Part shown: in pieces, positions 1,556 to 30,527 of the stretch
Layout: every line of letters starts with the position of its first letter
How positions within the stretch are numbered: the first letter of the stretch is position 1
From: Tepidiformaceae bacterium
GTDB taxonomy: Bacteria > Chloroflexota > Dehalococcoidia > Tepidiformales > Tepidiformaceae
Length of the DNA: 64,000 nt
Assembly (NCBI GenBank): GCA_965262975.1
Contig: OZ253575.1
Coordinates: 2,530,951-2,594,950, forward strand
Reading direction: 5' to 3'
Program-made: the position numbers and the translations under genes
Notes under the pieces: generated by a model
The model's input: only the letters and a program-made list of their open reading frames with translations
Told to the model about the DNA's origin: nothing
Databases searched by the model: none

Positions 1556-3178
<1,623 letters not shown>

Positions 3179-3180
3179 AC

Positions 3181-3303
3181 ATGTTGGAACGGCTGCGCTC
3201 AGGCCCCTTGAAGTACATCGCCTTCCCCATCGTGATCCTTGGGGTCCTCTTTGTGGTGATCCGAAGGTTTGTGGGCGGAGGGGACGCCGAAGAGGAAGCC
3301 TAG
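3181..3303 (+). CDS. 40-codon single-TM micro-protein co-transcribed with groESL (hypothetical)
   Basis: Too short for the ORF track; hand translation gives MLERLRSGPLKYIAFPIVILGVLFVVIRRFVGGGDAEEEA. The ATG lies 2 nt after the groEL stop. A GGAGGAG SD at 3165-3171 sits 9 nt upstream, inside the last groEL codons. One hydrophobic helix is flanked by K/RR and followed by an acidic tail. The only terminator-like hairpin of the operon follows it. Confidence 0.5.
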   Translation: MLERLRSGPLKYIAFPIVILGVLFVVIRRFVGGGDAEEEA

Positions 3304-3332
3304 CAGCCTCTCCCGAGCGGCTCATTGACAGA

Positions 3333-3365
3333 GCGTGACCCCTCGCGGGGGTCGCGCTTTGTTTT
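3333..3365 (+). terminator. Rho-independent terminator of the groES-groEL-microORF unit
   Basis: GCGUGACCCC-ucgc(g)-GGGGUCGCGC stem followed by UUUGUUUU. Confidence 0.7.
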
Positions 3366-3511
3366 GGGCAGCCCCTTCGCTCGCAGGACGCCAACCCCTC
3401 CCCCGAGCGCGAGATCGGCGCGTCCGGCACGGGCCGAGGGGCGCCGCCAGCCAGCTCGAAATATCCCGGGTAGCCCAAGGGGGCTATCGGCGTACGATTC
3501 AGGGTGTGGGA

Positions 3512-5551
3512 ATGAGGCGGGCGCGAGGGCGTCGCTGGAGAAGGCGGGCCGGTGGCCGCCTGTGGCGCCGCCTCGGGCGCGTTACGACCCAGGATGTCGT
3601 GCGCGCACTCTGGCTGGGCACGCTCATTGGCGTGGTCACGGGCGTGGCCGCGATCCTCTTCTTCGAAGCCCTTGACCTCTCGACGCGCTACATCCTCACC
3701 GAGCTGACCGGCTATGCGCCCCCGCATCCCCAGGGCGAGGGCGGGGGTGCGCCCGCCGGTCCGACGCGCACCTGGGCGCTCCCCATCGTGGTGGGCGTGG
3801 GGGCGCTCGTCTCCGGCATCCTCGTGTACTCGCTGGCGCCAGAGGCGGAGGGGGCGGGCGCGGACCAGGTGATCGACGCCTTTCACAAGCGGGGCGGACG
3901 CATGCGATTGCGCGTCATCCCGGTGAAGCTGATCGCCTCCGCGATCACGATCGGAAGCGGCGGGGCAGCGGGCAGGGAGGGGCCGGCCGCGCAGATCTCG
4001 GGCGGCATCGGTTCGGTTATCGCCGACCGGTTAGGGCTGAGCGCCGTTGAGCGCCGGCGGGCGCTCGTGGCGGGCATGGGGGCGGGCGTGGGCGCCATCT
4101 TCCGCGCCCCCCTGGGCGGCGCGATGATGGCCGCCGAGGCCCTCTACCGCGATGACTTCGAGGCGGACGCGATCCTGCTCTCGCTGATCTCGTCGATCGT
4201 CGCCTTTGCCGTGTACGGCGCCTGGTACGACTACACGCCCATCTTCGGCGGCACTGCGGGCTTCTCCTTCACGCACCCGGAGGAGCTCCCCTACTACCTG
4301 GCCCTGGGGGTGGCCTGCGGGCTGCTCGGCATCTTCTACGCACGCGGCCTGGAGGGGGCGCAGAAGCTCTTCCGCCGGCTGACCGGTCCGCGCTGGGTGA
4401 AGCCCGCCATCGGGGGCGTGCTCGTTGGTTGCATCGCGATGTTCGCCCCCGAGGCGATCCACGTCGGGTACGGCTGGGTGCAGCGCGCCCTCACCCCCGA
4501 CGAGGTGATGGACTTCTCCCTCTGGCTTCTCATCGCGCTGCCGCTCCTGCGCATCGTGGCGGGGGTGCTCACGGTGGGGTCGGGGGCGGCGGGGGGCATC
4601 TTCGCCCCCGGGATGGTGGCGGGAGGGATGCTGGGGGCGCTCTTCTGGCGGCTCTTCCACGATCTGCCCGGCTTCCCCGCGGAACCCGCGCCGCTCGTGA
4701 TCATCGGCATGATCGCGCTCTTCGGCAGCATCGCCCATGCCCCCCTCGCGATGATGCTGATGGTGGGCGAGATGACCGGGAACCTCTCGCTGCTGGCGCC
4801 CGCCATGGTGGCGGTGGCGGTCGCGACCCTGCTCGTGGGCAATAAGACCATCTACCGCAGCCAGGTGGCCACTCGCGCCGACTCGATGGCGCACCGCCAC
4901 CGCTTCGCCTTCCCCCTGCTCGATGCCCTGCCGGCGGAACGGGCCGTCGTGTCGCTGGCCATGGTGCGCGACACGTTCACCGTGGCGGAGGCGCTCTCCG
5001 CCCTGGAGCGGCGGCAGAGCACGGACGGCGTCCTGATAGACGAGAACGGGAGGCTGGTGGGTGAAATCACCAGCGAGGACCTGCGCGCCGCCCCCGACGC
5101 GGGGGCGCCCGTTGCAGGACTTTCGAGCGATCTTCCCGCAGTTGTGCTCGCGGACACGCCTCTCGACGAGGCGCTCGACCGCCTCGCGAGCCACGACCGC
5201 CGCTGGCTGCCCGTGCTCGACGGCAGCGACGGTCCCGTGCTGGGCGCGATCGACGCGCGCGCGCTGGTGCGCTCCTACCGCCGCGCCGTGCAGCAGCAGG
5301 TGCGTCCGCTGACGCCGGTCGACGAGGAGATCAGCACGATGGAGCTGACCGTCGCCGCGGGCGCGCCGGTTGAGGGAAAGACGCTGGCGGAGGCGGGCCT
5401 GCCCCAGGGCGTCCGTGTGCTCACGATGGAGCACCTGGGGCGCCTGTCCGCGCCCGCGGGCGATACGGTGCTGCGTCGCGGCGACCGCCTGACGCTGGTG
5501 ATGACGCGCGGCACACGCTCCGAGGTGCTCTCCCTCGTCCTCGGCGACTGA
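3512..5551 (+). CDS. ClC-family chloride/proton channel with C-terminal CBS pair and TrkA-C (RCK_C) domain
   Basis: ORF 3335..5551. I prefer ATG 3512 (MRRARGRRW...) just before the first TM segment. ClC motifs: GSGGAAGREGP, GIFAPGMVAGGMLG, PLAMMLMVGEMTG. CBS-like region: VSLAMVRDTFTV...DGVLIDENGRLVGEIT. TrkA-C-like end: GKTLAEAGLPQGVRVLTMEH...GDRLTLVM. Confidence 0.88.
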   Translation: MRRARGRRWRRRAGGRLWRRLGRVTTQDVVRALWLGTLIGVVTGVAAILFFEALDLSTRYILTELTGYAPPHPQGEGGGAPAGPTRTWALPIVVGVGALVSGILVYSLAPEAEGAGADQVIDAFHKRGGRMRLRVIPVKLIASAITIGSGGAAGREGPAAQISGGIGSVIADRLGLSAVERRRALVAGMGAGVGAIFRAPLGGAMMAAEALYRDDFEADAILLSLISSIVAFAVYGAWYDYTPIFGGTAGFSFTHPEELPYYLALGVACGLLGIFYARGLEGAQKLFRRLTGPRWVKPAIGGVLVGCIAMFAPEAIHVGYGWVQRALTPDEVMDFSLWLLIALPLLRIVAGVLTVGSGAAGGIFAPGMVAGGMLGALFWRLFHDLPGFPAEPAPLVIIGMIALFGSIAHAPLAMMLMVGEMTGNLSLLAPAMVAVAVATLLVGNKTIYRSQVATRADSMAHRHRFAFPLLDALPAERAVVSLAMVRDTFTVAEALSALERRQSTDGVLIDENGRLVGEITSEDLRAAPDAGAPVAGLSSDLPAVVLADTPLDEALDRLASHDRRWLPVLDGSDGPVLGAIDARALVRSYRRAVQQQVRPLTPVDEEISTMELTVAAGAPVEGKTLAEAGLPQGVRVLTMEHLGRLSAPAGDTVLRRGDRLTLVMTRGTRSEVLSLVLGD

Positions 5552-7032: not shown

Positions 7033-7062
7033 GGGGTAATTCGGTAAGGGGGTCGCTAGAGT
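7033..7062 (+). promoter_or_regulatory. Conserved promoter-like box GGGGTAATTC-N14-TAGAGT (copy 1 of 5)
   Basis: GGGGTAATTC ggtaagggggtcgc TAGAGT, then 6 nt (gaggcc) to ATG 7069. Same architecture as sites 17484, 19622, 22052 and 24462. Confidence 0.55.
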
Positions 7063-7068
7063 GAGGCC

Positions 7069-7092
7069 ATGGGGCGAGCATGCGGGCGGTGA
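7069..7092 (+). CDS. Candidate leaderless 7-codon uORF (MGRACGR*) coupled to the downstream gene
   Basis: ATG is 6 nt after TAGAGT. Reading: ATG GGG CGA GCA TGC GGG CGG TGA. The TGA overlaps GTG 7089 as GTGA, in frame with the DUF4177-like ORF. Confidence 0.35.
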   Translation: MGRACGR

Positions 7093-7403
7093 AGTGGGAG
7101 TACGCACTGCTGTACATCTCCGACGAGAAGCCGGCCCGGCGCTGGATTCTGTTCAGCCACGAGCAGGACGCGGCCAGCCTGGAGCGGTACTCCCCCCGCG
7201 CGACGGCCCACACCGCAACCTCCATCCACTTCAATCCGGAGAGGGTGCACACCACCTGGGTACTTGGGTCGCTGGGGGCTGAGGGCTGGGAGATGGTCGG
7301 CGTCGCCCGTGTCGACTCGCTGGAGGCGGCGTGCCTCTACCTGAAGCGGGAGCTGGACGACGACGGCAGGCAGGTGGCCGTCGTGCTGCCGCCGCGGGCC
7401 TGA
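7089..7403 (+). CDS. DUF4177-like small protein
   Basis: ORF track gives 7080..7403 (MRAVKWEY...). GTG 7089 gives MKWEYALLYISDE..., the usual DUF4177 N-terminus, and overlaps the uORF stop as GTGA. ATG 7080 remains possible. The LGAEGWEMVGV motif is typical of the family. Confidence 0.55.
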   Translation: MKWEYALLYISDEKPARRWILFSHEQDAASLERYSPRATAHTATSIHFNPERVHTTWVLGSLGAEGWEMVGVARVDSLEAACLYLKRELDDDGRQVAVVLPPRA

Positions 7404-7410
7404 GCGAAGG

Positions 7411-7785
7411 CTACCGGTTGGCGCCTTCCCCTGCCGCCACGGGCTGGGAGAGGTAGGACGTGAGGGCCGTGGCGATCAGGTAGTTGAGGGAGACACCTTC
7501 GATCTTGGCGCGCAGGGCCGCGCTGGCATGGAGCGACCGGGGTAGGCGCAGGCGGATGTCGCCCGAACGGTCGGAGCCCCAGGGCTTGGGGATGGGGTGG
7601 TCCTCGGCGAGTTCGTGGTCGATCCAGAGGCCCATCGCGACGTTCAGGTTCTCGGCCGCCTCAGCGGCGGTCTCCCCCTCACTGAACACACCGTCAAGCT
7701 CCAGCACGTGGGCCGACCAGTAACCGCTCTTGTCCGGCTGGATGATGCGGTGGTAGGGAAGCTCAAGGTAGTCAGTCGTCTGCAT
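7411..7785 (-). CDS. hicB: HicB-family antitoxin (N-terminal HicB fold + C-terminal RHH/Arc-like), no HicA partner adjacent
   Basis: 124 aa: LPYHRIIQPDKSGYWSAHVLELDGVFSEGETAAEAAENLNVAMGLWIDHELAEDHPIPKP...IRLRLPRSLHASAALRAKIEGVSLNYLIATALTSYL. It lies 35 nt downstream of the ABC ATPase gene. Confidence 0.8.
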   Translation of the reverse strand: MQTTDYLELPYHRIIQPDKSGYWSAHVLELDGVFSEGETAAEAAENLNVAMGLWIDHELAEDHPIPKPWGSDRSGDIRLRLPRSLHASAALRAKIEGVSLNYLIATALTSYLSQPVAAGEGANR

Positions 7786-7820
7786 ATCAGTGACACCGTA
7801 TGCGGTGCCAGCGAGTCGGG

Positions 7821-8714
7821 CTACTCCGGCCTCGACCAGCGGCCTTCGGGGATGTCCTCGGATGGTTCCGGCTCCTCCGGGGGTGGGGGCTCCTCGGATT
7901 CGGCGGGACGGACGCCGAAGTGGCTGGTGTCGGCGCCGATGAGGGAGGGGAGCGACTGGCTCTCCGGGCTCTCGCCCTCGGGCGCTTCGAAGGGAGTGCG
8001 TTCGCGCGACTGCACCCGGCCCCAGACGTCGCCCTTGTGGCCCGTCACGAGGCGGCCGTCCTCCAACTCCTCCACGCGGCTGGCCATCTCCATCACGAGG
8101 CGATCGTGCGTGCAGGTGATGATGGAGACGCCGCGCTCGCGGCAGATGTCGCGGATAAGGGTGAAGACGGCCGTGGCGGTGGCCGAGTCGAGCTCGCCCG
8201 TGGGCTCGTCGGCGAGCACGAGCGTGGGCTCGGTGACGAGCGCGCGGGCGATGGCGACGCGCTGCTGCTCCCCGCCGGAGAGTTCGTAGGGGCGGTGGTG
8301 GGCGCGACGCTCGAGCCCGACCAGCTCCAGCACCTCGCGGGCGCGGGCCGGTCGCGCGCGGTGTACGCCCGAGATGCGCAGGGGCAGCTCCACGTTCTCC
8401 TGGGCGGAGAGCAGGGGGAGGAGCCCGAACGACTGGAAGATGAAGCCCAGCTTCTGGCGGCGAAGGGTGATCAGCTCGGACTCGCGCATCGTGTCGACGC
8501 GCTCGCCGTCGATCTCGACCTCGCCGGAGGTGGGGCGGTCAAGCCCGGCGATAGTGTTCAGCAGGGTGGTCTTGCCCGAGCCGGAGCGCCCGATGAGGGC
8601 GAGGAACTCGCCCGGCTCGACGGAGAGGCTGACATCGCGCACGGCCCAGATCTCTTCCGAGCCGAGTTGGAAGCGGCGGGTGACGTTGCGCAGCTCGATG
8701 CGGGCGCCGGCCAT
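7821..8714 (-). CDS. ABC transporter ATP-binding protein (MacB/LolD-type NBD) with acidic Pro-rich C-terminal tail
   Basis: Walker A GRSGSGKTT, Q-loop, signature [15 protein letters not shown], Walker [14 protein letters not shown]-loop TCTHD. The ~80-aa tail reads ...ESPESQSLPSLIG...ESEEPPPPEEPEPSEDIPEG. The ATG overlaps the upstream gene's stop (ATGA). Confidence 0.93.
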   Translation of the reverse strand: MAGARIELRNVTRRFQLGSEEIWAVRDVSLSVEPGEFLALIGRSGSGKTTLLNTIAGLDRPTSGEVEIDGERVDTMRESELITLRRQKLGFIFQSFGLLPLLSAQENVELPLRISGVHRARPARAREVLELVGLERRAHHRPYELSGGEQQRVAIARALVTEPTLVLADEPTGELDSATATAVFTLIRDICRERGVSIITCTHDRLVMEMASRVEELEDGRLVTGHKGDVWGRVQSRERTPFEAPEGESPESQSLPSLIGADTSHFGVRPAESEEPPPPEEPEPSEDIPEGRWSRPE

Positions 8715-9631
8715 CAGCGTTCCTCCCCGGATACGCGGCGGACGGTGTCGGGCAGCACCTCGATGCGCCCTTCGCCAAGGAAGAGCTTGGCCCGCTCGCT
8801 GATGCTCAGCCGTTCGAGGAACTCGCGCGGCACCTGCAGGCGTCCGGCGGAATCGACGAGCACGTACTCGTCGTGCACGACCTGCGTGACGCCGCCTGCC
8901 TGCTCGACGCGGCGGAAGATCTCCATGCTCGTGCGACCGTCGCGGATGGCGACGACGCGGTTCACGCGGGAGGCGATCTCGGGGTCGTGGGTCACGATGA
9001 TGATGGTGACGCCGTAGCGCGCGTTCAGGTCGCCGAGCACCTCGTAGACGCTGTCGGCGCCGATGGCGTCGAGCTCGCCCGTGGGCTCGTCGGCGAGGAG
9101 GAGGGGCGGGCGGTTGGCGAGCGCCACGGCGATGGAGACGCGCTGCTGCTCGCCGCCCGAGAGTTGCTCGGGGTGGTGGTCGCGGCGATTGCCGAGGCTC
9201 ACGGCGTCGAGCAGCTCGTTGGAGCGCTCGCGCGCGGCGCCTGCCTCCACGCCATCAAGCATGAGCGGCAGCTCAACGTTCTGGGTGGCCGTGAGGTAGG
9301 GGATGAGGTTGCGGCCCGTCTGCTGCCAGATGAAGCCGACGGAGCTGCGGCGGTAGCGAACCATCTCGCCCTCGGTCATGGTCAACAGGTCGCGCCCGCC
9401 AACGAAGGCGCGTCCGGCGCTGGGCTGGTCGAGCCCGGCGAGGATGTTGAGCAGGGTGCTCTTGCCCGAGCCGGAGGCCCCGACGATGGCCATCAACTCG
9501 CCCGCGCGCACCTTCAGGTCGAGCCCGCGGAGGGCGACGACCTCGAGCTCGTCGCTCTTGTGAATCTTGAAGAGATCCTCGCAGACGATGTACGGGGGCG
9601 CTCCGGTCTCGGTGTTGGGGAAGGTTGTCAT
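8714..9631 (-). CDS. ABC transporter ATP-binding protein with AbrB/SpoVT-like C-terminal extension
   Basis: Only the last 305 aa of ORF 8714..11428 are real; ATG at 9631 verified. Sequence: [24 protein letters not shown]...[12 protein letters not shown]...[15 protein letters not shown]...[12 protein letters not shown]...IVTHD. The tail ...[38 protein letters not shown] resembles a swapped-hairpin AbrB-type motif (inference). Confidence 0.92.
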
Positions 9632-9639
9632 GGGGTGTC

Positions 9640-12600
9640 CTAGAGCTCGCCGATGCGCAGGGCGCGATGCAGGGCCAGCCGCGAGTAGAGGCGCGCAAGG
9701 GCGGCCACGGTGGCGATGAAGACGAGGGCGAGCAGGCCGTAAACGGAGAGCACGGTCTCCCAGCTTACCTGCGAAAGGAGGGGTGGGACCACGTCGCTGC
9801 CGTCCTCGGTGAGGGCGATGGCGCCGATCATGAGGCGTCCGAGGGGGAATCCGAGGGCTGTACCGGCGGCCACGCCCGCGATGATCACGAAGAGTTGCTC
9901 GAATCCGACCACCCCCACGATCTGGCGTCCGGAGAAGCCCATCGTGCGGAGGATGGCGAATTCCAGCGAGCGCGTCTGCGCCGCCAGGTAGGAGAAGACG
10001 ATGAAGCCGAGGGCCGTGAGCAGCAGCACCGCCCCGAAGGAGAGGAAGAGGATTCCCTCCCAGCTGGCGGCGATCAGCGGGTCGGAGGATTCGATCGCGA
10101 AGATGGCGGCGCCGTCGTAGACCTCGCGGGCGCGGAAGCCTTGCTCCTCCAGCCACTCGTCCGTGAGCTCTATCCCCTCGACACTTCCCAGCCACACCTC
10201 GTTCACGGCGATGCCGCCGGCCACCCGCGGGATGCCCGCACCGGCGTCCCGGAGGGCGGCGAGATCGGCGACGAGCAGGTGGTCGCGCGGGCCCGGGTAG
10301 AAGCCGGGGAAGAGCTTGAAGGCGCCGGTGATCTTCACCTTGAGCAGCTGGCGGTTTACGCGTACGGGGATGGTGTCGCCGGGGCTGGCCTCGATTGCCT
10401 CCAGGAACGACTCGCTGGCAAGCACGCGCAGCGGTGCGGGCGAGCGGCGCAGGCGCAGTCCCACCGCGGTTACGGAGAAGCTGTCGTAGTTGAAGGAGAT
10501 CTGGACGGCGTAGCGCCCGCGGTCGTTGTCGATGTCGGCGCGCGTGACGGTCGTCTCGGCGGCCCCGGAGGCGCCCGTGATGGACTGGTAGCGGTCGAGC
10601 GATTCGAACGGCTCGATCACGACGGCGTCGGCGGCCCCCCCACCCTCGGGGTAGGCGACAATGTCGTCGACCAGGGCGGTGACGCGTCCGGGGGCGGCGG
10701 CGAAGCGGCGCACGCTGAGGAAGACGGACTCGATTTCCAGCGTCGAATCGAGATCGGGCGGGCGGTCGCGGGGGTTGAAGGGGCGGGTGAGGTCGACGAC
10801 ATAGAGGAGCCAGCCGTCGTCTTCCTCGACCGGGTCGCTCACGAACAGGTACTCGAAGTGGAGGCCGTTCTCGTCGCGCAGGCGAATGCCGGGGCGGGCG
10901 GCGCGGTCGGGCAGGGAGATGCGCGTCCAGAGGCCGAGGGCGCGCGAGCCGGGGGGCACAATGGCGCCGTCGGGCAGGTCCGCGTCCTCGTCGGGCTGAA
11001 GGCTGGCGAGGAGCGAGTCGAGGTCGCCAAAGTCGTCCCGCCAGAAGGCGACCTCGGCGAAGTCTTCGCTCACGCCGAGGAGCTCCGCGGGGGTGGAGCG
11101 CCCGGTGAAGGGGGCGTAGGACACCTCGATGCGGGCGGCCGCGCTGGCGCGGTCGAGCCCGTCGATCGATTCGATGGACTCCTCCAGCCGCTCGGCGGAG
11201 AGGCGCGAAGGCTCGCGGATGTCGACGAGGCGGCCGGGAGCGCCGGCCTCGTAGGCGGCGCGGTCCTCGAAACTGCGGTCGAGCGTGGCGCGGAATCCGG
11301 CGGCGAACATGCCCACGGAGGTTGCCAGGAGGAGCAGCAGGATGAGGCGGCTGTAGTGGAGCGGGCTTCGCACCATGCGCCAGAGGCCGAGCAGGATGGT
11401 GGCCCCGCTCAGGCCCCGCAGCGCCCATGAGGCGACCGCCAGAACGACCGGGAACAGCCGCAGGAAGACGAGCGCGATCATCAGCATGAAGAGCGCGGGC
11501 GAGACCAGCAGGAGCGGGTCGGCGGAGAGGTCGCCGAAGAGGTTCTCGGTTACGAGCGAGCCCCGCTGGCGTAGCTGGTAGAAGAGAAAGGCGCCCACGG
11601 CCACGAGCACGAGGTCGAGGTAGTAGCGCAGGAAGAGCGGCTGCCTGGTGGGCCGGGCGAGGCTCTGCTTGAAGTGAACCATGCTCGCTTCGGAGGCGCG
11701 GTAAGCGGGCCAGAGCAGCGCGACCAGCGCGAGCAGCGCTCCGAGGGCGGCCAAGCCGAACGCCTCGGCGGTGAGCGTCACCTGCAGCAGCTCACCTTGG
11801 CTGAGGTCGGAGAAGGGGGGCGTCGGGCCCAGCAGGCGGATGACGCCCGAGGCCAGCAGCGGCCCGAGGACCACCGCGAAGATGGTGAGCACCGAGCCCT
11901 CGATCAGGTAGACGGTCATGATCTGGCCGAGGCCCGCCCCGCGGCTCTTCAGGAGCGCGATCTCGCCCGCCTGGCGCTCGACCAACATCGTCGCCACCAG
12001 CACCAGGTAGTAGAGCGCGATGCCGACGATGAGCAGCATGAGCGCGAAGAGCGGAAGCCGCGTGAAGAACAGCTTCTCCTGGTACTCGGCGATGACGTCC
12101 ACCAGCTCCGTGTCGAGCGACGACAGCTCCAGCTGCGCGCGGATCTCGCGTTCGAGCGCACGCAGGTTGCGCTCCACCGTCTCGGCGTTGCGGCTGTTGA
12201 CGCGCTCGCGGTCGATGAAGGCGTAGGTCTCGAAGGTGCCGTCGATGGAGGGGAGGTAGGGGGCCAGTACCTCCACGAAGGTGCGCTCGTCGATGACGAA
12301 GGGGAAGGTGGGCCAGCGCGTGCCGTCGACCACGAGGCGGTAGGCGTTGCCGAACCAGTAGTCCTCGGTGGGGTCGGAGGGCTCGAACAGTCCGGCGACG
12401 GTGACTTCGACGGGGTCGACATCGTCGCGCCAGAAGGGGTGGAGGTCGAAGGTGTCGCCCACGCTGATGCCGAGCTGGCGGGCGGCGGTGGCGGCGATCC
12501 AGACTTCGATGCTGGGCCGCAGGGAGGGGTCGGTGGTGGGAGGAGAGGCGGCTGCGGGGCCGCCCTCGACGAGCGTTACGTGGGCGCCGATGTCGGAGAA

Positions 12601-12999
12601 GAAGAGGAAGTGGGCGCGGGCGCGCAGTTCGTCGTCGTCGTCGATGGGCACGCCGGGCTCGGCCAGGAAGAAGGTGGAGGAGCGCGCGTAGACGCCCGTG
12701 TCCTCGATGAGGCTCCCGGCGTAGCGCTGCAAGAGCGTGAAGGTAGCCTCGCGGCGCTCCTTGTAGATGTCGGTCTCGCCAGGCTGGCTGTTACTGATGA
12801 CCTTGAGGTCGAGCTCGAGGGGTTCCTGCTGGCGGAGGGTGAAGCTGAGGCCGAGGTCGCGCACGGCGTCGGAGTAGAGGATGACGCTCGACATGAGGGC
12901 GGAGGCGAGGACCATGCCGAAGATGACGGTGACGAGCAGCCGCCAGTTCGCGAGGCTCCGCTGGGCGACGATGCGCAGGAGGGAGGCAAAGCTGTTCAT
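9640..12999 (-). CDS. Very large ABC transporter permease with two FtsX-type modules (1119 aa)
   Basis: N-terminal TM (LLVTVIFGMVLASALMSSVILY), then large extracytoplasmic regions. There are two FtsX-like 3-4 helix bundles, with EIALLKSRGAGLGQIM and EFAILRTMGFSGRQIV motifs. It sits directly upstream of two NBD genes. Confidence 0.88.
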   Translation of the reverse strand: MNSFASLLRIVAQRSLANWRLLVTVIFGMVLASALMSSVILYSDAVRDLGLSFTLRQQEPLELDLKVISNSQPGETDIYKERREATFTLLQRYAGSLIEDTGVYARSSTFFLAEPGVPIDDDDELRARAHFLFFSDIGAHVTLVEGGPAAASPPTTDPSLRPSIEVWIAATAARQLGISVGDTFDLHPFWRDDVDPVEVTVAGLFEPSDPTEDYWFGNAYRLVVDGTRWPTFPFVIDERTFVEVLAPYLPSIDGTFETYAFIDRERVNSRNAETVERNLRALEREIRAQLELSSLDTELVDVIAEYQEKLFFTRLPLFALMLLIVGIALYYLVLVATMLVERQAGEIALLKSRGAGLGQIMTVYLIEGSVLTIFAVVLGPLLASGVIRLLGPTPPFSDLSQGELLQVTLTAEAFGLAALGALLALVALLWPAYRASEASMVHFKQSLARPTRQPLFLRYYLDLVLVAVGAFLFYQLRQRGSLVTENLFGDLSADPLLLVSPALFMLMIALVFLRLFPVVLAVASWALRGLSGATILLGLWRMVRSPLHYSRLILLLLLATSVGMFAAGFRATLDRSFEDRAAYEAGAPGRLVDIREPSRLSAERLEESIESIDGLDRASAAARIEVSYAPFTGRSTPAELLGVSEDFAEVAFWRDDFGDLDSLLASLQPDEDADLPDGAIVPPGSRALGLWTRISLPDRAARPGIRLRDENGLHFEYLFVSDPVEEDDGWLLYVVDLTRPFNPRDRPPDLDSTLEIESVFLSVRRFAAAPGRVTALVDDIVAYPEGGGAADAVVIEPFESLDRYQSITGASGAAETTVTRADIDNDRGRYAVQISFNYDSFSVTAVGLRLRRSPAPLRVLASESFLEAIEASPGDTIPVRVNRQLLKVKITGAFKLFPGFYPGPRDHLLVADLAALRDAGAGIPRVAGGIAVNEVWLGSVEGIELTDEWLEEQGFRAREVYDGAAIFAIESSDPLIAASWEGILFLSFGAVLLLTALGFIVFSYLAAQTRSLEFAILRTMGFSGRQIVGVVGFEQLFVIIAGVAAGTALGFPLGRLMIGAIALTEDGSDVVPPLLSQVSWETVLSVYGLLALVFIATVAALARLYSRLALHRALRIGEL

Positions 13000-13033: not shown

Positions 13034-13681
13034 TCATGACTCTCTGCGCGGGGCTGCGGGTCGCACGCGGGCGACGCTGTAGTCGGTTGGGTCGCGGACG
13101 GACTCGTAGTCCGTGAGCTCCAGGCGGTGGCACCAGGTGGAGGGTCTTCGTAGTCGGAGTTCGCTGCCCTTGCCGCTCGACAACCACGCGGCGGTTTCGG
13201 CGCGTTCGCGCCCAAAACGGGTGGCGACGAACTCGAGGGCCGGGAGCAGGTCGGTGTCGGTCGAACAGATGATGCCGGTGTCGTAGGCGCCGTCGATGGC
13301 GCCCGCGACGAAGTCGATTGCGAGCTGCACGTCGATCCCCTTCTCCTCGGCGCGCTGTTCAGGCCAGCGTCGCGGGTACCGCAGGGGGCGGGTGATGACG
13401 ACCGCGCCGGACTGCTCCCAGGCGTGGCACTGGCGTCTATGTGCTCCGTAGGTCTTTGGATCCCTGGTGGCATCTGGTCGACCCGAGTAGACGCGCACTT
13501 GTTCAAGGACGCGGGGCTCGGAGGCAGGGTGGTAGGGGTTCTCGCGACCACAGAGAAGCCTCCCGAGTTCAACTGGGGCGATCTGGCCTACTCGGCGATG
13601 GGACCTGCTCGTCTGGGAGAAGGCACGGGCCCCTTGGTAGACGTTCTGGGCGTCAACGAAGACCGCGACTCGATTGACCAT
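13034..13681 (-). CDS. NYN-domain (LabA/DUF88-like, PIN-fold) putative RNase
   Basis: 215 aa: MVNRVAVFVDAQNVYQGAR...EKGIDVQLAIDFVAGAIDGAYDTGIICSTDTDLLPALEFV. These are the conserved acidic residues of the NYN/LabA fold. No SD; the start codon lies 6 nt after a U-tract. Confidence 0.8.
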   Translation of the reverse strand: MVNRVAVFVDAQNVYQGARAFSQTSRSHRRVGQIAPVELGRLLCGRENPYHPASEPRVLEQVRVYSGRPDATRDPKTYGAHRRQCHAWEQSGAVVITRPLRYPRRWPEQRAEEKGIDVQLAIDFVAGAIDGAYDTGIICSTDTDLLPALEFVATRFGRERAETAAWLSSGKGSELRLRRPSTWCHRLELTDYESVRDPTDYSVARVRPAAPRRES

Positions 13682-13686
13682 CGGCT

Positions 13687-13786
13687 CAAGAAAAACCCCC
13701 GCCAGTGCGCCACAAGTGACGGACGACGGGGAACATTCACCCTAACGGGCACTACCCAGTGTGTGCTGCCGTCCAGCATTTGTCAA
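13687..13786 (-). repeat. Module 1: TTGACA box, 28 nt, then a 66-nt hairpin/U-tract unit abutting the NYN start (candidate leader/sRNA with intrinsic terminator)
   Basis: Minus strand: TTGACA (13786-13781), 28 nt, then GUGCCCGUUAGGGUGAAUGUUCCCCGUCGUCCGUCACUUGUGGCGCACUGGCGGGGGUUUUUCUUG (13752-13687). CCCCGUCG pairs with UGGCGGGG and is followed by UUUUUCUU. It is a direct repeat of module 2. Confidence 0.75.
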
Positions 13787-13885
13787 GGGCATAAGTTGGT
13801 CTCCCGAGAAGTAAACGAACGACGGGCGCTCGGGCGGCATGAGGAGCCTGCGAAGCCGCCCAGCGAAAGAACGAGGGGGTGTGGA

Positions 13886-13986
13886 CAAGAAAAACCCTCG
13901 CCAGTGCGCCAGCAAATAGAGAACGACGGGGAACAGTGGCCCTATCGGGCGCCCCCCTTCTCTGGTCTCGCTGGAGACGGTGTCAA
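13886..13986 (-). repeat. Module 2: TTGACA box, 28 nt, then a 67-nt hairpin/U-tract unit, 200 bp upstream of module 1
   Basis: Minus strand: TTGACA (13986-13981), 28 nt, then GCGCCCGAUAGGGCCACUGUUCCCCGUCGUUCUCUAUUUGCUGGCGCACUGGCGAGGGUUUUUCUUG (13952-13886). The stem arms and 5' end are conserved with module 1, while the apical loop and the 28-nt spacer are diverged. Confidence 0.75.
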
Positions 13987-14046
13987 CGCCACGCGTCGTA
14001 GGTGGGGGAGCGCTTGAGGGGCGGAGACCGCTACCCTTGTGCGGCT

Positions 14047-17000
14047 ATGCGGGGCTTGGCCGTTCTCTGGGGGTTGCTGCTGCGCCACGGCGCGGCCAGC
14101 TGGCGAATGCTGGCTGTGCTGGCGCTGGGCGTGCTCGTGGCCTCGACGCTGCTGGCGAGTGCGCCCATCTACGCGCGCGCCATGGCCGACCTCGGGCTCA
14201 AGTTCACCGTTCGCGATGAGCTGCGCGACGAGCCCTCCATCCGTGTCGGCATTGAGGCGCAGCAGCTCGCCACACCCGACTCGCTTGCGGCCCGTGCGGC
14301 GGTCGAGAACCGCATCGACGAGCGGCTCGGCTGGTTCGCGCTTGATCGCTCCATGGTGGTCGAGTCGGCGCGCCTCACCGTCGGGACGACGGGCGCGGAG
14401 CCACGGGCGGGCACCGCTCTGGCCGTGCTCTACGCGGTCGAGGGTTTCGAGCAGCATGTCCTGGTGCAGGAGGGGCGCCTGCCCCTTCCCACCGGTCCCG
14501 ACGGCCCCGTGGAGGTGGTGATGGGCGCCCGCGCGGCGGCGGTCGCGCGGCTGGACCTGGGTGACGAATTCCTGCTGATCGAGGAGTTCGACAATTGCGA
14601 CCGCATCATCCCGGCGGGGCTACAGCCGCAGTTGCCCTGCGACCTGAAGGTGCTCGTGCGCTACTCCATGCCCGCGGTGCTCACGGGCATCATCGCGATC
14701 GAAGACGCGGACAGCTCCTTCTGGTCGGCGGCCAGCGACCGCTATGTGCAGCCGGCCGCGCCGATTGCGGACTCGGGGCTCGTCTCGCCCATGGTGGCGC
14801 ACCTTGATGCCGTGCTGGGTGACGTGGCCGTGCGCTACCCGGGCCAGCGCCTGAGACTGCGCTGGAACGTCCTCGCCGATATTGACCAGCTCGACCAGGG
14901 CAACTTCCAGCGGGCGCGGGCGGACATGCTCGACCTCAACCAGGACCTGCGCGTCTACAACGGCTATGCCATCAGCCCGCTCGCGGTCACGCTCGATGCG
15001 TTCGGCCGGAGCGCCGACTTCCAGCGTGCGCCCCTCACCATCCTGCTCGTGCAGATCGCGGCGATCGCGCTCTTTTACGTGGCCCTCATCTCCGTGGCGG
15101 TGGTGGAGCGCCAGGGCGAGCAGATCGCCCTGCTGCGCGGTCGCGGGTCGAGTACGAGCCAGATCGTCGCCCTCTACGCGCTCGAGGGGCTGGCCCTGGC
15201 GCTGCCGGCCATTCTCGTGGCGCCCTTCATCGCGGGGGGCGTGACGGCCCTGCTCGGGTTCACGCCCGTGTTCAACGACATCTCCGGTGGCGACCTGCTG
15301 CCGGTCTCCTTTGAGCCGCTCGCCTTCCCCCTGGCCGCGCTCGGGGCCCTGCTCTCGATCGTGGCGCTGACGGCGCCTGCCTTCGTGGTGGCGCGCCGAG
15401 GGCCGCAGGGACAGCGGCGGGCGCTGGCGCGTCCCGCAGCCAGCCTCATCCAGCGCTACTACCTCGACGTGGTGCTGGTCGGGTTCGCCCTGCTGGCCCT
15501 GTGGGAGCTGAACGAGCGCAACTCGGTCTACACGCCCTCCTCCACGGGCGGCGTCTCGAGCGACCCGCTGCTGCTCGCCTCGCCAGCGCTCATCATCGCG
15601 GCGTCGGCGGCCGTGCTGGCGCGTCTCTACCCGATCGTGCTGCGGGTGATCGTGCGGGTGGCGGGTCGCGTGGTCGGGGTGGCCGTGGCGATGGGGCTGT
15701 GGCAGCTGGTGCGCCGACCGGGACCGTACACGCAACTCGCCCTGCTCCTGATGATGGCCGTGGCCGTGGGCATGTTCGCGGCCAGCTACACGAGCACCAC
15801 CGAGCGCTCCTACGAGGATCGCGCCCGCTTCGCCGCGGGCGTGGAGCTGCGCGCGGGCGCCTCCGATGCCACCTTCCTGCCCTCCGACCCCGCGAGACTG
15901 GAGGCCGAGCTGGAGGCGGTCGAGGGTGTGGAGAATGCCTCGGCCGTCATGCGCCTGGAGGGCGAGATCGCCACGCCCAACAGCGCCGGTCCGGAGGTGG
16001 CCGTGCTTGCGGTGTCGGAAGAGGCAGGCGACCTGCTCTGGTGGCGCGAGGACTTCGCCGAGCGCACGCTCGACGCCATCCTCGACCGCGTCGACAGCGG
16101 CGACATCCTGAGGGGCGTGCCCATCCCGCCCGCCGCGGCAGAACTCTCTGTATGGGTGAATCCGGAGTTGCAGCGCACCACCGTAACGGTGTGGGCGCGC
16201 GTGCGCGATGCCACCGGCCGGCACCACCTGCTGCCCTTCGGCAAGCTCGACTTCCGCGGTTGGCGCGAGTTGCGCGCTCCTATCGAGAGCCGCGGCTTCC
16301 GCCCGCTGGAGGAGCCGCTCTCGCTGATCGCGCTCATCCTCACGGAGCCCGCGAACCAGTTCAACGCGAGCGAAGACCCCGTGTATATCGACGATCTCTC
16401 GTCGGTGGATCCGGATGGCTCCCTCAACCTGCTGGAGGGCTTCGAAGGGATCGTGCGCTGGGAGGCGATCCCGAGCGCCGCGCGGTCGACGGACAGCCTG
16501 CAGCTGAGCCGCGATGAGGCGCACTCGGGCTCGCAGGCGGCGCGGCTCGAGTTCCGGCGCGGCACCACGGGCGAGCGGCGCGGGCTCTTCCCCGCCGATC
16601 GCGGCATTCCCCTGCCCGTCCTCGCCAGCGAGGCCTTCCTGGAGGAGAACAGCCTGGTGGTCGGCAGCGAGGACCTGCTCGAGATCGATAATCTCATCGT
16701 GCCCTTCGTTGTGCGCGGGGTGTACGAACGCTTCCCCACGCTGCCAACGCTCGACGGCCCCTCGGTGGTGCTGAACCGCGACCAGCTGCTGCGCTGGGGG
16801 TACATGGTGAGCACCACGCCGGGCGACCTCTCGCGACCGAACGAGGCGTGGCTCGACCTGGCCCCCGGGGCCGACCGCGAGCTCCTGACGGAGGCGCTCG
16901 AAGGGTTTGGTCTGCGGCGCGTGGTCGACCAGGAAGCGACACTCGCCTCGGTACGCTCGAACCCGCTCATCGCCGCCAGTGGCACGGGCATCCTCTCCAT

Positions 17001-17397
17001 CTCGTTCGTCGCGACGATGGCGCTTGTGGCGGTGGCGCTGCTGGTCTCGCTCTGGATGGCGCTGCAGCGGCGGCGGGTGGAGTTCGCGGTGCTGGGGGCG
17101 ATCGGGCTGACGCGCCGCCAGGTGATGGGCGTGCTCGGTCTGGAGTACGCCATCGTGGGGGTGGTGGGCGTGGCCGCGGGCGTGCTCGTGGGGCAGTTCG
17201 TGGGGCGGCGCATGCTCTCCTTCCTCGACGTGACGGAGGCGGGCCTGCCCGTCGAACCGGGGTTCGTGCTGCAGACGGACTGGACGTTCGTGGTGGTGGG
17301 CGCGGCCGTGGTGGCGGTTGTCTTTGCCATCGCCCTCATCGGCGCCGTGCGGGCGATGGCGCGCACGTCCGATGCGGCCGCCCTCCGCACGGAGTAG
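14047..17397 (+). CDS. Second very large FtsX-type ABC permease (about 1116 aa), divergent from the NYN-ABC operon
   Basis: ORF 14002..17397. ATG 14047 gives MRGLAVLWGLLLRHGAASWRMLAVLALGVLVASTLLASAPIYARAM, the same N-terminal design as the 9640..12999 product. FtsX-like motifs: QIALLRGRGSSTSQIV and EFAVLGAIGLTRRQVM. Confidence 0.88.
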   Translation: MRGLAVLWGLLLRHGAASWRMLAVLALGVLVASTLLASAPIYARAMADLGLKFTVRDELRDEPSIRVGIEAQQLATPDSLAARAAVENRIDERLGWFALDRSMVVESARLTVGTTGAEPRAGTALAVLYAVEGFEQHVLVQEGRLPLPTGPDGPVEVVMGARAAAVARLDLGDEFLLIEEFDNCDRIIPAGLQPQLPCDLKVLVRYSMPAVLTGIIAIEDADSSFWSAASDRYVQPAAPIADSGLVSPMVAHLDAVLGDVAVRYPGQRLRLRWNVLADIDQLDQGNFQRARADMLDLNQDLRVYNGYAISPLAVTLDAFGRSADFQRAPLTILLVQIAAIALFYVALISVAVVERQGEQIALLRGRGSSTSQIVALYALEGLALALPAILVAPFIAGGVTALLGFTPVFNDISGGDLLPVSFEPLAFPLAALGALLSIVALTAPAFVVARRGPQGQRRALARPAASLIQRYYLDVVLVGFALLALWELNERNSVYTPSSTGGVSSDPLLLASPALIIAASAAVLARLYPIVLRVIVRVAGRVVGVAVAMGLWQLVRRPGPYTQLALLLMMAVAVGMFAASYTSTTERSYEDRARFAAGVELRAGASDATFLPSDPARLEAELEAVEGVENASAVMRLEGEIATPNSAGPEVAVLAVSEEAGDLLWWREDFAERTLDAILDRVDSGDILRGVPIPPAAAELSVWVNPELQRTTVTVWARVRDATGRHHLLPFGKLDFRGWRELRAPIESRGFRPLEEPLSLIALILTEPANQFNASEDPVYIDDLSSVDPDGSLNLLEGFEGIVRWEAIPSAARSTDSLQLSRDEAHSGSQAARLEFRRGTTGERRGLFPADRGIPLPVLASEAFLEENSLVVGSEDLLEIDNLIVPFVVRGVYERFPTLPTLDGPSVVLNRDQLLRWGYMVSTTPGDLSRPNEAWLDLAPGADRELLTEALEGFGLRRVVDQEATLASVRSNPLIAASGTGILSISFVATMALVAVALLVSLWMALQRRRVEFAVLGAIGLTRRQVMGVLGLEYAIVGVVGVAAGVLVGQFVGRRMLSFLDVTEAGLPVEPGFVLQTDWTFVVVGAAVVAVVFAIALIGAVRAMARTSDAAALRTE

Positions 17398-30450: not shown

Positions 30451-30527
30451 CGGGGTGTAGCTCAGCCAGGTAGAGTGCTTCGTTCGGGACGAAGAGGTCC
30501 CCGGTTCAAATCCGGGCACCCCGACCA
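30451..30527 (+). tRNA. tRNA-Pro (anticodon CGG), CCA encoded
   Basis: Hand-folded cloverleaf. Acceptor CGGGGTG/CACCCCG. D arm GCTC-AGCCAGGTA-GAGT. Anticodon arm CTTCG-TTCGGGA-CGAAG (34-36 = CGG). Variable AGGTC. T arm CCCGG-TTCAAAT-CCGGG. Discriminator A, then CCA. Confidence 0.92.

Follow-up and report, generated by a model that had tools for sequence, protein, structure and literature searches.

Two hairpin-forming repeats stand in front of a predicted RNase gene in a Tepidiformaceae genome, and the question raised by this locus is whether they belong to the mRNA of that gene, to the regulation of the exporter genes behind it or to RNA genes in their own right. The window, by which we mean the whole 64,000-nucleotide stretch of contig OZ253575.1 (assembly GCA_965262975.1) that was analysed, has a single NYN gene (13034-13681). 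Both repeats sit inside the 365-bp divergent intergenic region next to it, which is bounded upstream by the ATG of an FtsX permease gene at 14047. An initial annotation of this DNA had offered three readings: an attenuator or riboswitch-like leader of the exporter operon, small RNAs tied to the RNase and following the logic of type III toxin-antitoxin (TA) systems, and a dispersed intergenic repeat. The second appears to fit the comparative data best, in that the unit accompanies NYN genes and also occurs in orientations expected of a separate gene. We assign a probability of roughly 0.5 to the reading that each module would be a self-contained small-RNA gene, with a terminator that limits read-through into NYN and a hairpin that serves as the specific RNA ligand of the nuclease.

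The two modules and the consensus of their relatives

Units were compared in two sets, whose loci and contigs are cited by L numbers. The protein-first set comprises 17 loci, namely 13 distinct NYN loci (43-91% identity) and four Actinomycetota plasmid homologs (31-36%), and these 17 loci alone are free of pattern-selection bias. A degenerate DNA pattern made from the consensus gave 26 matches in viral contigs and at least 120 in metagenome contigs. Alignment A2 holds 80 units, and the covariance model R1 was built from it.

In the window the two minus-strand modules were read directly. As annotated, their TTGACA boxes lie exactly 200 bp apart (proximal 13786-13781, distal 13986-13981), and each is followed by 28 nt of poor conservation and then by a unit of 66/67 nt. 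Repeat search and pairwise alignment also recovered the conserved blocks that flank a variable apical part in both copies. One direct-repeat block of 35 nt is 80% identical at a spacing of 200 and a second of 26 nt is 96% identical at a spacing of 199, the difference being due to a 1-nt indel in the apical loop. Nowhere else in the 64 kb is the 26-nt 3' block present, with 0 expected from shuffles. On the minus strand the proximal unit reads GUGCCCGUUAGGGUGAAUGUUCCCCGUCGUCCGUCACUUGUGGCGCACUGGCGGGGGUUUUUCUUG and the distal unit GCGCCCGAUAGGGCCACUGUUCCCCGUCGUUCUCUAUUUGCUGGCGCACUGGCGAGGGUUUUUCUUG. The parts of the modules and the gene that follows them are:

13781..13786, minus strand: proximal -35 box TTGACA, read directly; TTGACA or a near match lies at equal distance in homologous loci
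13758..13763, minus strand: proximal -10-like hexamer CACACT after a 17-nt spacer, read directly; promoter predicted
13739..13750, minus strand: proximal accessory 5' hairpin GCCC-GUUA-GGGU (RNAfold)
13689..13740, minus strand: proximal core unit; R1 59.8 bits, E 1.9e-18; hairpin -20.5 kcal/mol
13737-13732, minus strand: proximal 5' tail AAUGUU
13731-13725, minus strand: proximal lower-stem 5' arm CCCCGUC
13724-13705, minus strand: proximal upper stem-loop
13704, minus strand: proximal bulged U
13703-13697, minus strand: proximal lower-stem 3' arm GGCGGGG
13695-13688, minus strand: proximal U-tract UUUUUCUU
13981..13986, minus strand: distal -35 box TTGACA, read directly; TTAACA in L007, TGGCAA in L011 and L012, whose distal copies are degenerate
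13958..13963, minus strand: distal -10-like hexamer AGAGAA, read directly; weak, position 6 not T; AAAGGT there in L007
13939..13950, minus strand: distal accessory 5' hairpin GCCC-GAUA-GGGC (direct reading and RNAfold)
13888..13940, minus strand: distal core unit with a weak terminator; R1 49.4 bits, E 9.9e-15; hairpin -10.5 kcal/mol
13034..13681, minus strand: NYN gene, LabA-like, PIN-like fold, 215 aa, conserved partner of the unit; Pfam PF01936, 36.4 bits, cut-off 24.2

The distal unit has the tail ACUGUU and lower-stem arms, CCCCGUC and GGCGAGG, that include a C.A mismatch. Its upper stem pairs poorly, its bulged U is at 13903 and its U-tract at 13894-13887, and its lower-stem G-to-A change recurs in the distal copies of L001, L007 and L013. 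A single unit copy is present in L002, L003-L006/L009, L010 and L015, and two copies are present in the window, L001, L007, L011, L012, L013 and L017. In L011 and L012 the distal copy has degenerated. A -35-like box precedes each of the two copies in the window, L007 and L017, and the distal copies of L011, L012 and L013 are without one. The proximal copy is the canonical one, and the distal copy appears from these alignments to be an old tandem duplicate that among Tepidiformaceae has been kept in some and has decayed or is absent in others; it probably still yields some RNA and some read-through. The copies had been called phased in the initial annotation, but tandem copies in relatives are spaced 114, 154, 193 or 200 bp apart, so the exact 200-bp phase has no conserved meaning.

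From its 5' end, the consensus of the family begins with a single-stranded tail A(C/A)U(G/C)(C/U)U and the lower-stem 5' arm CCCCG(C/U)C. These are followed by G-U-C-C (variants C-U-U-C and U-U-U-C), an upper stem-loop, G-(C/A)-A-C with a bulged U after it, the lower-stem 3' arm GGCGGGG and a U-rich tract N-UU(A/U)U(U/C)UU. The segment between the lower-stem arms, including the G-U-C-C element, is 18-34 nt long, and loop lengths are not multiples of three, which speaks against coding. The tail A at -6 is found in 88 of 89 units and the U at -4 in 85 of 89, neither of them fixed by the selection pattern; the bulged U is found in all 89, yet it was required by the pattern, as was the U at -1. 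About half of the units have a C.C or C.A mismatch at the third upper position.

Evidence for an RNA structure comes from comparison, since single-sequence folding energies are not significant alone (z -0.3 to -1.7). On A2, 95.9% of cells are paired, versus 84.3% in shuffles and 36-52% when the partner column is slid, and both sides have changed in 103 cells versus 33 in shuffles. Compensatory changes at the three variable upper-stem pairs number 21, 33 and 38. For the lower stem, the unbiased evidence consists of the 17 protein-first loci and of rare compensatory variants, CCUCGCC/GGCGAGG in L022 and CCCCACC/GGUGGGG in the second copy of L014, Clavibacter and Miniimonas. The U-tract is 54-81% U at positions that the search pattern left unfixed, and with a GC-rich hairpin directly 5' of it an intrinsic terminator is predicted.

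In most units the conserved A is preceded, at 6-7 nt, by a TAnnnT-like hexamer, frequently with TTGACA another 16-18 nt upstream, and the placing of the hexamer makes that A the probable transcription start. Tepidiformaceae-type units, including both window copies, have an accessory hairpin GCCC-NNNN-GGGY between the promoter and the conserved A, and their -10 box lies correspondingly further upstream. This hairpin is found in L002, L007, L009-L013, L015 and L017 and is absent in L014, L016, L018-L022 and most metagenome units. At the site orthologous to the proximal -10 box the hexamers follow the form xAxxxT (CACACT, GAAGAT, CAAGAT, GAGAAT, GATACT, CATACT), and transcription of the proximal unit would start at about 13750-13752. 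A simple promoter/terminator scanner called no promoters and missed the proximal hairpin, the latter because of the bulge and the long loop. The initial annotation was right at the core of its description, that of a structured RNA which would have a promoter of its own and a 3' end like an intrinsic terminator.

Other parts of that description did not hold. The proposed alternative pairing of GYGCC with GGCGC is 15.6 kcal/mol worse in the proximal copy (-13.2 vs -28.8) and leaves the lower stem by the U-tract free; it is near-competitive in the weakened distal copy only (-16.9 vs -18.4 kcal/mol). As an antiterminator it would use the upper stem, which is unconserved in sequence, and we rejected it as a family feature. 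We also rejected a leader peptide: a 16-codon open reading frame (ORF) starts from the AUG in GAAUGUU, but CUG, CUA, AUA or AUC stands there elsewhere.

The R1 model separates two populations. True members score 43-67 bits over the full model, and generic GC-rich terminators that match the pattern score at most 29 bits and are without the 5' tail; several of these sit after tRNA genes. The short variants on plasmids have an upper stem of just four pairs and a tetraloop and for that reason score lower (26-29 bits), and they retain the lower stem and bulged U. The Clavibacter and Miniimonas units align over the full model including the tail, and the Pseudonocardia unit only from model position 7. 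A covariance-model search and an Rfam scan had both been proposed for this locus. In the 64-kb window R1 matches just the two known units, the next match having E = 2.4. The units match no known family in Rfam 15: nothing was found at E up to 10 in window positions 13400-14300, in 12 further loci that carry units none of these was matched at E up to 1, and the whole window at gathering score gave nothing but one tRNA gene (30451-30524, plus strand). By these comparisons the units make a solid candidate for a new RNA family absent from Rfam 15.

Linkage of the unit to NYN genes

Seen from the protein side, the unit adjoins NYN upstream in 17 of the 17 protein-first loci. The genome matches to NYN come from Tepidiformaceae and other Dehalococcoidia. 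Homologs at 43-55% identity that have no exporter keep the unit and a near-consensus promoter (L014, L016, L018, L019, L020, L022), and the unit is likewise kept on the plasmids; FtsX/ABC genes are absent downstream in L014, L016, L018-L022 and the plasmids. The unit therefore tracks the NYN gene and not the exporter. The plasmid homologs are those of Clavibacter sepedonicus pCSL1, Pseudonocardia pFRP1-2, Miniimonas pS16-1 and Dietzia pI, and in all four the unit lies 15-30 nt upstream of the annotated NYN start. The gene that follows the unit is CMS_RS17420 in Clavibacter and GJR88_RS17320 in Dietzia sp. DQ12-45-1b.

Seen from the RNA side, NYN presence was scored with an NYN profile on six-frame ORFs of the fetched DNA. 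Among the metagenome matches listed, 74 units were confirmed by the model, and those with NYN in the fetched DNA, or too near a contig end, are arranged as follows:

45 of 74 listed units: on the NYN strand and upstream of the gene; 43 of them were scored directly, and in the other two, L143 and L148, the unit is overrun by the NYN reading frame
5 of 74 listed units: facing the 3' end of NYN in convergent orientation, with a -10 box of their own on the side away from the gene (e.g. TATAAG, TACAAT)
2 of 74 listed units: just downstream of NYN on the same strand
1 of 74 listed units: divergent from NYN
3 of 74 listed units: contig end too near to tell

By contrast with these family members, listed pattern matches that lack family features have an NYN gene in 0 of 39 cases. 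We found no further R1 copies in the 64-kb window or in ~1 Mb of NYN-locus flanks except beside NYN. The variety of gene orders and orientations argues for a separate small-RNA gene rather than just a 5' untranslated region (UTR).

The surroundings of the module shift and are mobile or defence-type, with plasmids near parA, restriction-modification (R-M) genes, a resolvase and tRNA or transfer-messenger RNA (tmRNA) flanks. The neighbours are acyl-CoA dehydrogenase and NurA in L014, an aldolase in the low-GC Dehalococcoidales locus L016, RadC and a resolvase in the Acidobacteria-labelled genome L018, a ParB gene in the vicinity in L020, and a type III R-M system and a HicB-like gene in L022. 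The Miniimonas pS16-1 module is divergent from parA, and that of Dietzia pI lies beside an EcoRI-type methylase, DUF262 and Shedu. In L016 the NYN module is immediately preceded by a MerR-DUF433 gene and a DUF5615 gene (2671-3862). We take these two genes to be a TA-like pair, in which case the neighbourhood of the module would be rich in TA genes.

The NYN protein itself belongs to PF01936 by a profile score above the cut-off, a PIN-like fold and conserved acidic residues. D10, D117, D123, D142 and D144, acidic residues of the catalytic type, are invariant in the subfamily, and on these grounds the protein is predicted to be a nuclease. A subfamily-specific extra C-terminal segment is also conserved (W183, H185, D191, D197, Y201). 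The AF2 model has a pLDDT of 91.6, and its sole significant PDB fold neighbour is 2QIP (Foldseek, E 1.7e-7), a LabA-like NYN protein of unknown function; a PDB sequence search gave a marginal match to 2QIP only. For the subfamily, a profile search of 1.84 billion representatives at E up to 1e-30 gave 306 clusters, defined at 50% identity. There are hundreds of NYN homologs, the named ones mainly from Dehalococcoidia or Chloroflexi metagenome-assembled genomes, and none was found in the cultured-phage collection. PADLOC and NCBIfam yielded weak partial matches at best and no meaningful name for the protein. Our literature search for NYN with an RNA motif or type III TA found no RNA partner described, and functional studies of bacterial NYN proteins are lacking according to a survey of the PIN superfamily (PMC5499597).

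Readings of the module and the place of the exporter genes

We propose that a sigma-70-type promoter would start transcription a few nucleotides upstream of the conserved single-stranded tail A-N-U-N-N-U, which in the window lineage would be preceded by an extra 12-nt hairpin. The GC-rich hairpin would be transcribed next, with its near-invariant lower stem CCCCGYC/GGCGGGG, bulged U, frequent C.C/C.A mismatch and covarying upper stem. Since the U-rich tract follows the hairpin directly, most transcripts should end there as a ~45-65-nt RNA. The common arrangement leaves no room for a second promoter, so NYN would be expressed only by read-through, as would the downstream exporter genes in the window. 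The hairpin RNA would act as a specific ligand of the NYN protein, by analogy with the logic of ToxIN and AbiF-RCd22: the invariant bulge, mismatch and tail suggest recognition by a specific protein, and the genomic linkage makes NYN itself the simplest candidate for it. The data show the anatomy of the units, their covariation and conservation, and a tight two-way genomic link to one NYN subfamily; we infer the start and stop of transcription, the binding of the RNA by NYN, the nuclease activity and any toxicity.

Several points weigh against a small-RNA gene with NYN as its dedicated partner. In about 60% of units the RNA is simply the NYN 5' leader, and a purely cis-acting element would account for that too. 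The metagenome and viral sets were chosen with a pattern that fixes much of the lower stem, so that conservation there is partly circular. Eighteen of the 74 listed units, about a quarter of those found by the pattern, are without NYN in the fetched DNA, and one high-scoring copy, on the viral contig L035, lies between terminase and portal genes, in a phage packaging module with no NYN gene. So stable a GC-rich hairpin is not obviously labile, unlike classic RNA antitoxins, and most loci have a single hairpin, whereas in canonical type III systems the antitoxin is an array of tandem repeats that the toxin processes. The Tepidiformaceae locus is syntenic and seemingly inherited vertically with a housekeeping-like exporter, unlike a typical addiction module. 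PADLOC gave just weak partial matches to its HEC-09 and NYN models.

The orphan units reach scores as high as the NYN-linked ones, at 43-63 bits, and no shared protein family was found beside them. Two of the 18 listed orphans keep N-terminal remnants of NYN (IILFVDYQNAY..., RLVVFIDAQYWY) after the unit, in L120 (about 7061-7114, minus strand) and in L131 (4345-4404, plus strand), where the remnant stands directly before the gene for ribosomal protein S20 (rpsT). In these two cases the RNA gene seems to outlive the nuclease gene. Viral contigs of related phages carry the family hairpin over the full model at 49-57 bits (L035 6994-7043, L039 6901-6950, L031 10486-10535), and a phage copy of the L035 type could be a terminator of the usual kind or else a decoy, carried by the phage, of the RNA that accompanies NYN. 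Two other orphans lie upstream of a type I-U style Cas protein, Cas_GSU0053 (L139 1350-1409, minus strand), and of a DprE1-like FAD oxidase (L092 4297-4346, plus strand). The unit may sometimes be a promoter-leader cassette for other genes.

A further-reaching version of the small-RNA reading is that the module is a new RNA-antitoxin/protein-toxin (type III-like) or abortive-infection module, in which one bulged-U hairpin RNA, serving also as its own terminator, neutralises an NYN/PIN-like nuclease. Such a module would be spread over Chloroflexota, Actinomycetota plasmids and other phyla, and its orphans, including the phage copy, would be decoys or anti-defence mimics. We put this forward tentatively, as an idea with the odds against it.

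A doubtful but serious rival is that the unit works in cis only, in the 5' UTR of the NYN mRNA, where it would be an attenuator or an operator for autoregulation. NYN, or a general factor, would bind or cleave this leader and so set the level of NYN, and stand-alone, convergent and tandem copies would be left over from rearrangements or from the loss of genes. Several RNases, among them RNase E, RNase III and PNPase, do autoregulate through 5' UTR hairpins, and the commonest layout here is promoter, unit and then the NYN start 4-54 nt on. The pseudogene remnants in L120 and L131, and the distal copies that decay (L011, L012) or are absent (L002, L009, L010, L015), fit such a leader as well. 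It does not readily account for the listed units at five independent convergent loci, two downstream and one divergent, each with a well-placed -10 box of its own, nor for orphans that score as high as NYN-linked units. The distance to the promoter is fixed, whereas that to the start codon is variable. Also against such a leader, L014 carries a further unit behind NYN in the same orientation (4719-4778), with its own TTGCCA-17-TATAGT promoter and the compensatory lower stem CCCCACC/GGUGGGG.

It is unlikely that the unit is a constitutive element with no dedicated partner, that is, an mRNA-stabilising 5' hairpin and/or a leaky terminator that keeps expression low and is inherited with the gene. 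The hairpin and U-tract do agree with the sequence definition of an intrinsic terminator, and like hairpins occur where an ordinary terminator would be expected, in the phage packaging module and right after a tmRNA gene. However, lower stem, bulged U, mismatch and tail are near-invariant across Chloroflexota, Actinomycetota plasmids and Acidobacteria-labelled and low-GC genomes, a range over which the protein falls to 31% identity and GC content shifts, and ordinary terminators lose their sequence; the generic terminators that match the pattern stay at or below 29 bits and have no tail. The tmRNA case is L127 (993-1044, minus strand), a 63-bit unit that starts 8 nt past the tmRNA 3' end (partial Rfam tmRNA match 1048-1125) and is followed by short tandem repeats (ttttctgggggga). 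In L082 a tRNA lies about 200 nt upstream of the unit. Genes for tRNA and tmRNA are common insertion sites of islands.

We consider it very unlikely that the unit is a generic dispersed repeat, of the repetitive extragenic palindromic (REP) or miniature inverted-repeat transposable element (MITE) kind, or a protein-binding palindrome at the DNA level. Bulged imperfect palindromes are a feature of REP sequences, the quarter of listed units without a nearby NYN have heterogeneous contexts, and L045 has two copies with no NYN. The REP/MITE type, as the initial annotation had framed it, is unsupported all the same, as the 64-kb window and the ~1 Mb of NYN-locus flanks hold copies beside NYN only, the two in the window both before it. 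The promoter lies at a fixed distance, and no transposase or REP-associated tyrosine transposase (RAYT) gene was seen among the neighbouring genes examined. A DNA operator was rejected, since the arm spacing varies over 18-34 nt and the inner helix covaries as an RNA helix, unfit for a dimeric operator. The two units of L045, a viral-flagged high-GC contig, lie 340 bp apart (3500-3551 and 3165-3208, minus strand) and flank a small opposite-strand ORF whose reading frame continues across the first hairpin; we found no NYN gene on this contig.

A Pfam scan bore out the annotated order of genes behind NYN, and these genes and the divergent one are:

9640-12999, minus strand: giant FtsX permease, 1119 aa
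about 8714-9631 and 7821-8714, minus strand: ABC ATPases
7411-7785, minus strand: HicB gene
14047..17397, plus strand: divergent second giant FtsX permease (Pfam FtsX on ORF 14002-17397, with an in-frame ATG at 14047)

A duplicated riboswitch or antibiotic-type attenuator controlling this FtsX/ABC operon is highly improbable: the unit does precede the operon-like exporter row in the window and in Tepidiformaceae relatives, but loci without an exporter behind NYN keep it too, the ~6 nt that precede the hairpin in most family members leave no space for an aptamer or antiterminator, and there is no conserved leader ORF, competitive alternative pairing or Rfam match.

The synteny of the downstream exporter row (7411..12999) is kept in L002, L007 and L008 and absent in L014, L016, L018-L022 and the plasmids, and from this distribution the exporter genes appear to be lineage-specific context outside the conserved module. 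The proximal U-tract (13695-13688) does stop a few nucleotides before the NYN ATG, as annotated. The absence of a Shine-Dalgarno (SD) box before NYN, also annotated, stands for this lineage but not for many relatives: with 4-54 nt between hairpin and start codon, many non-Tepidiformaceae loci have a normal, GGAGG-like SD box there.

The divergent FtsX permease is conserved in L001-L013, L015 and L017. Its start region in the window (14010-14049, plus strand) and in L002, L003, L007 and L008 has the conserved stretch ACCGCTACCCTTGTGCG(C/G)(G/C)(C/T)ATG, with a TACCCT box 9 nt upstream of the ATG and no SD box, which suggests that the FtsX mRNA may be leaderless or nearly so. A HicB-family gene without a visible HicA occurs near the NYN module in three otherwise unlike loci (window 7411-7785, minus strand; L007 8934-9308; L022 4489-4710).

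Relation to known RNA-protein systems

The autoregulatory 5' UTR hairpins of RNases (rne, RF00040, and the rnc and pnp leaders) resemble the present unit as conserved stem-loops at the 5' end of an RNase mRNA. In those leaders the enzyme recognises a hairpin of its own mRNA; they are strictly cis-acting, with no terminator and no stand-alone copies. The present unit differs in that it is also found convergent, downstream and orphaned, and it has no Rfam match.

The closest system that has been worked out is RCd22-AbiF of Clostridioides difficile phi027. [quoted passage not shown] The module described here has the same predicted layout of promoter, hairpin RNA, terminator, RBS and protein gene, and both are mobile, AbiF being prophage-borne. 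The proteins differ, with an NYN/PIN-like fold here and an Abi_2/HEPN-like one in AbiF. Here the conserved hairpin would itself be the terminator, whereas RCd22 has two separate motifs upstream of one, and sequence and structure are unrelated, the units giving no match to the Rfam family of the abiF motif, RF03085.

The type III TA systems ToxIN, CptIN and TenpIN have an RNA gene, a terminator and an endoribonuclease-type gene under one promoter, the terminator setting the RNA:protein ratio, and they are found on plasmids, near phages and in defence contexts (PMC3401426, PMC8860590). At the sequence level the same order, with a terminator between RNA gene and protein gene, is present at 45 of the 74 listed units and at all 17 protein-first loci. 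Their toxins have the ToxN/AbiQ-type fold (ToxN, CptN and TenpN families), whereas the protein here is a 2QIP-like NYN of PF01936, and their antitoxins are tandem 34-44-nt repeats cut by the toxin, whereas usually one hairpin is present here; the two copies in the window are 200 bp apart, each with promoter-like boxes. As it differs in toxin family and has no tandem-repeat antitoxin, we describe the module as one that would work like a type III system and not as a member.

By Pfam score and fold the protein is a member of the LabA-like NYN proteins (PF01936, COG1432, 2QIP). No function has been established for the bacterial LabA-type NYN proteins, which form a large family of PIN-like nucleases (PMC5499597). 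At the least, the units add a well-supported candidate RNA family absent from Rfam 15. A dedicated and conserved RNA partner would be a concrete handle on these NYN proteins, as it predicts a specific ligand or substrate and a regulatory circuit, and Clavibacter, Dietzia and Pseudonocardia offer culturable hosts. If the nuclease is indeed neutralised by the RNA, a new toxin fold and a minimal antitoxin of one hairpin would be added to the RNA-antitoxin systems.

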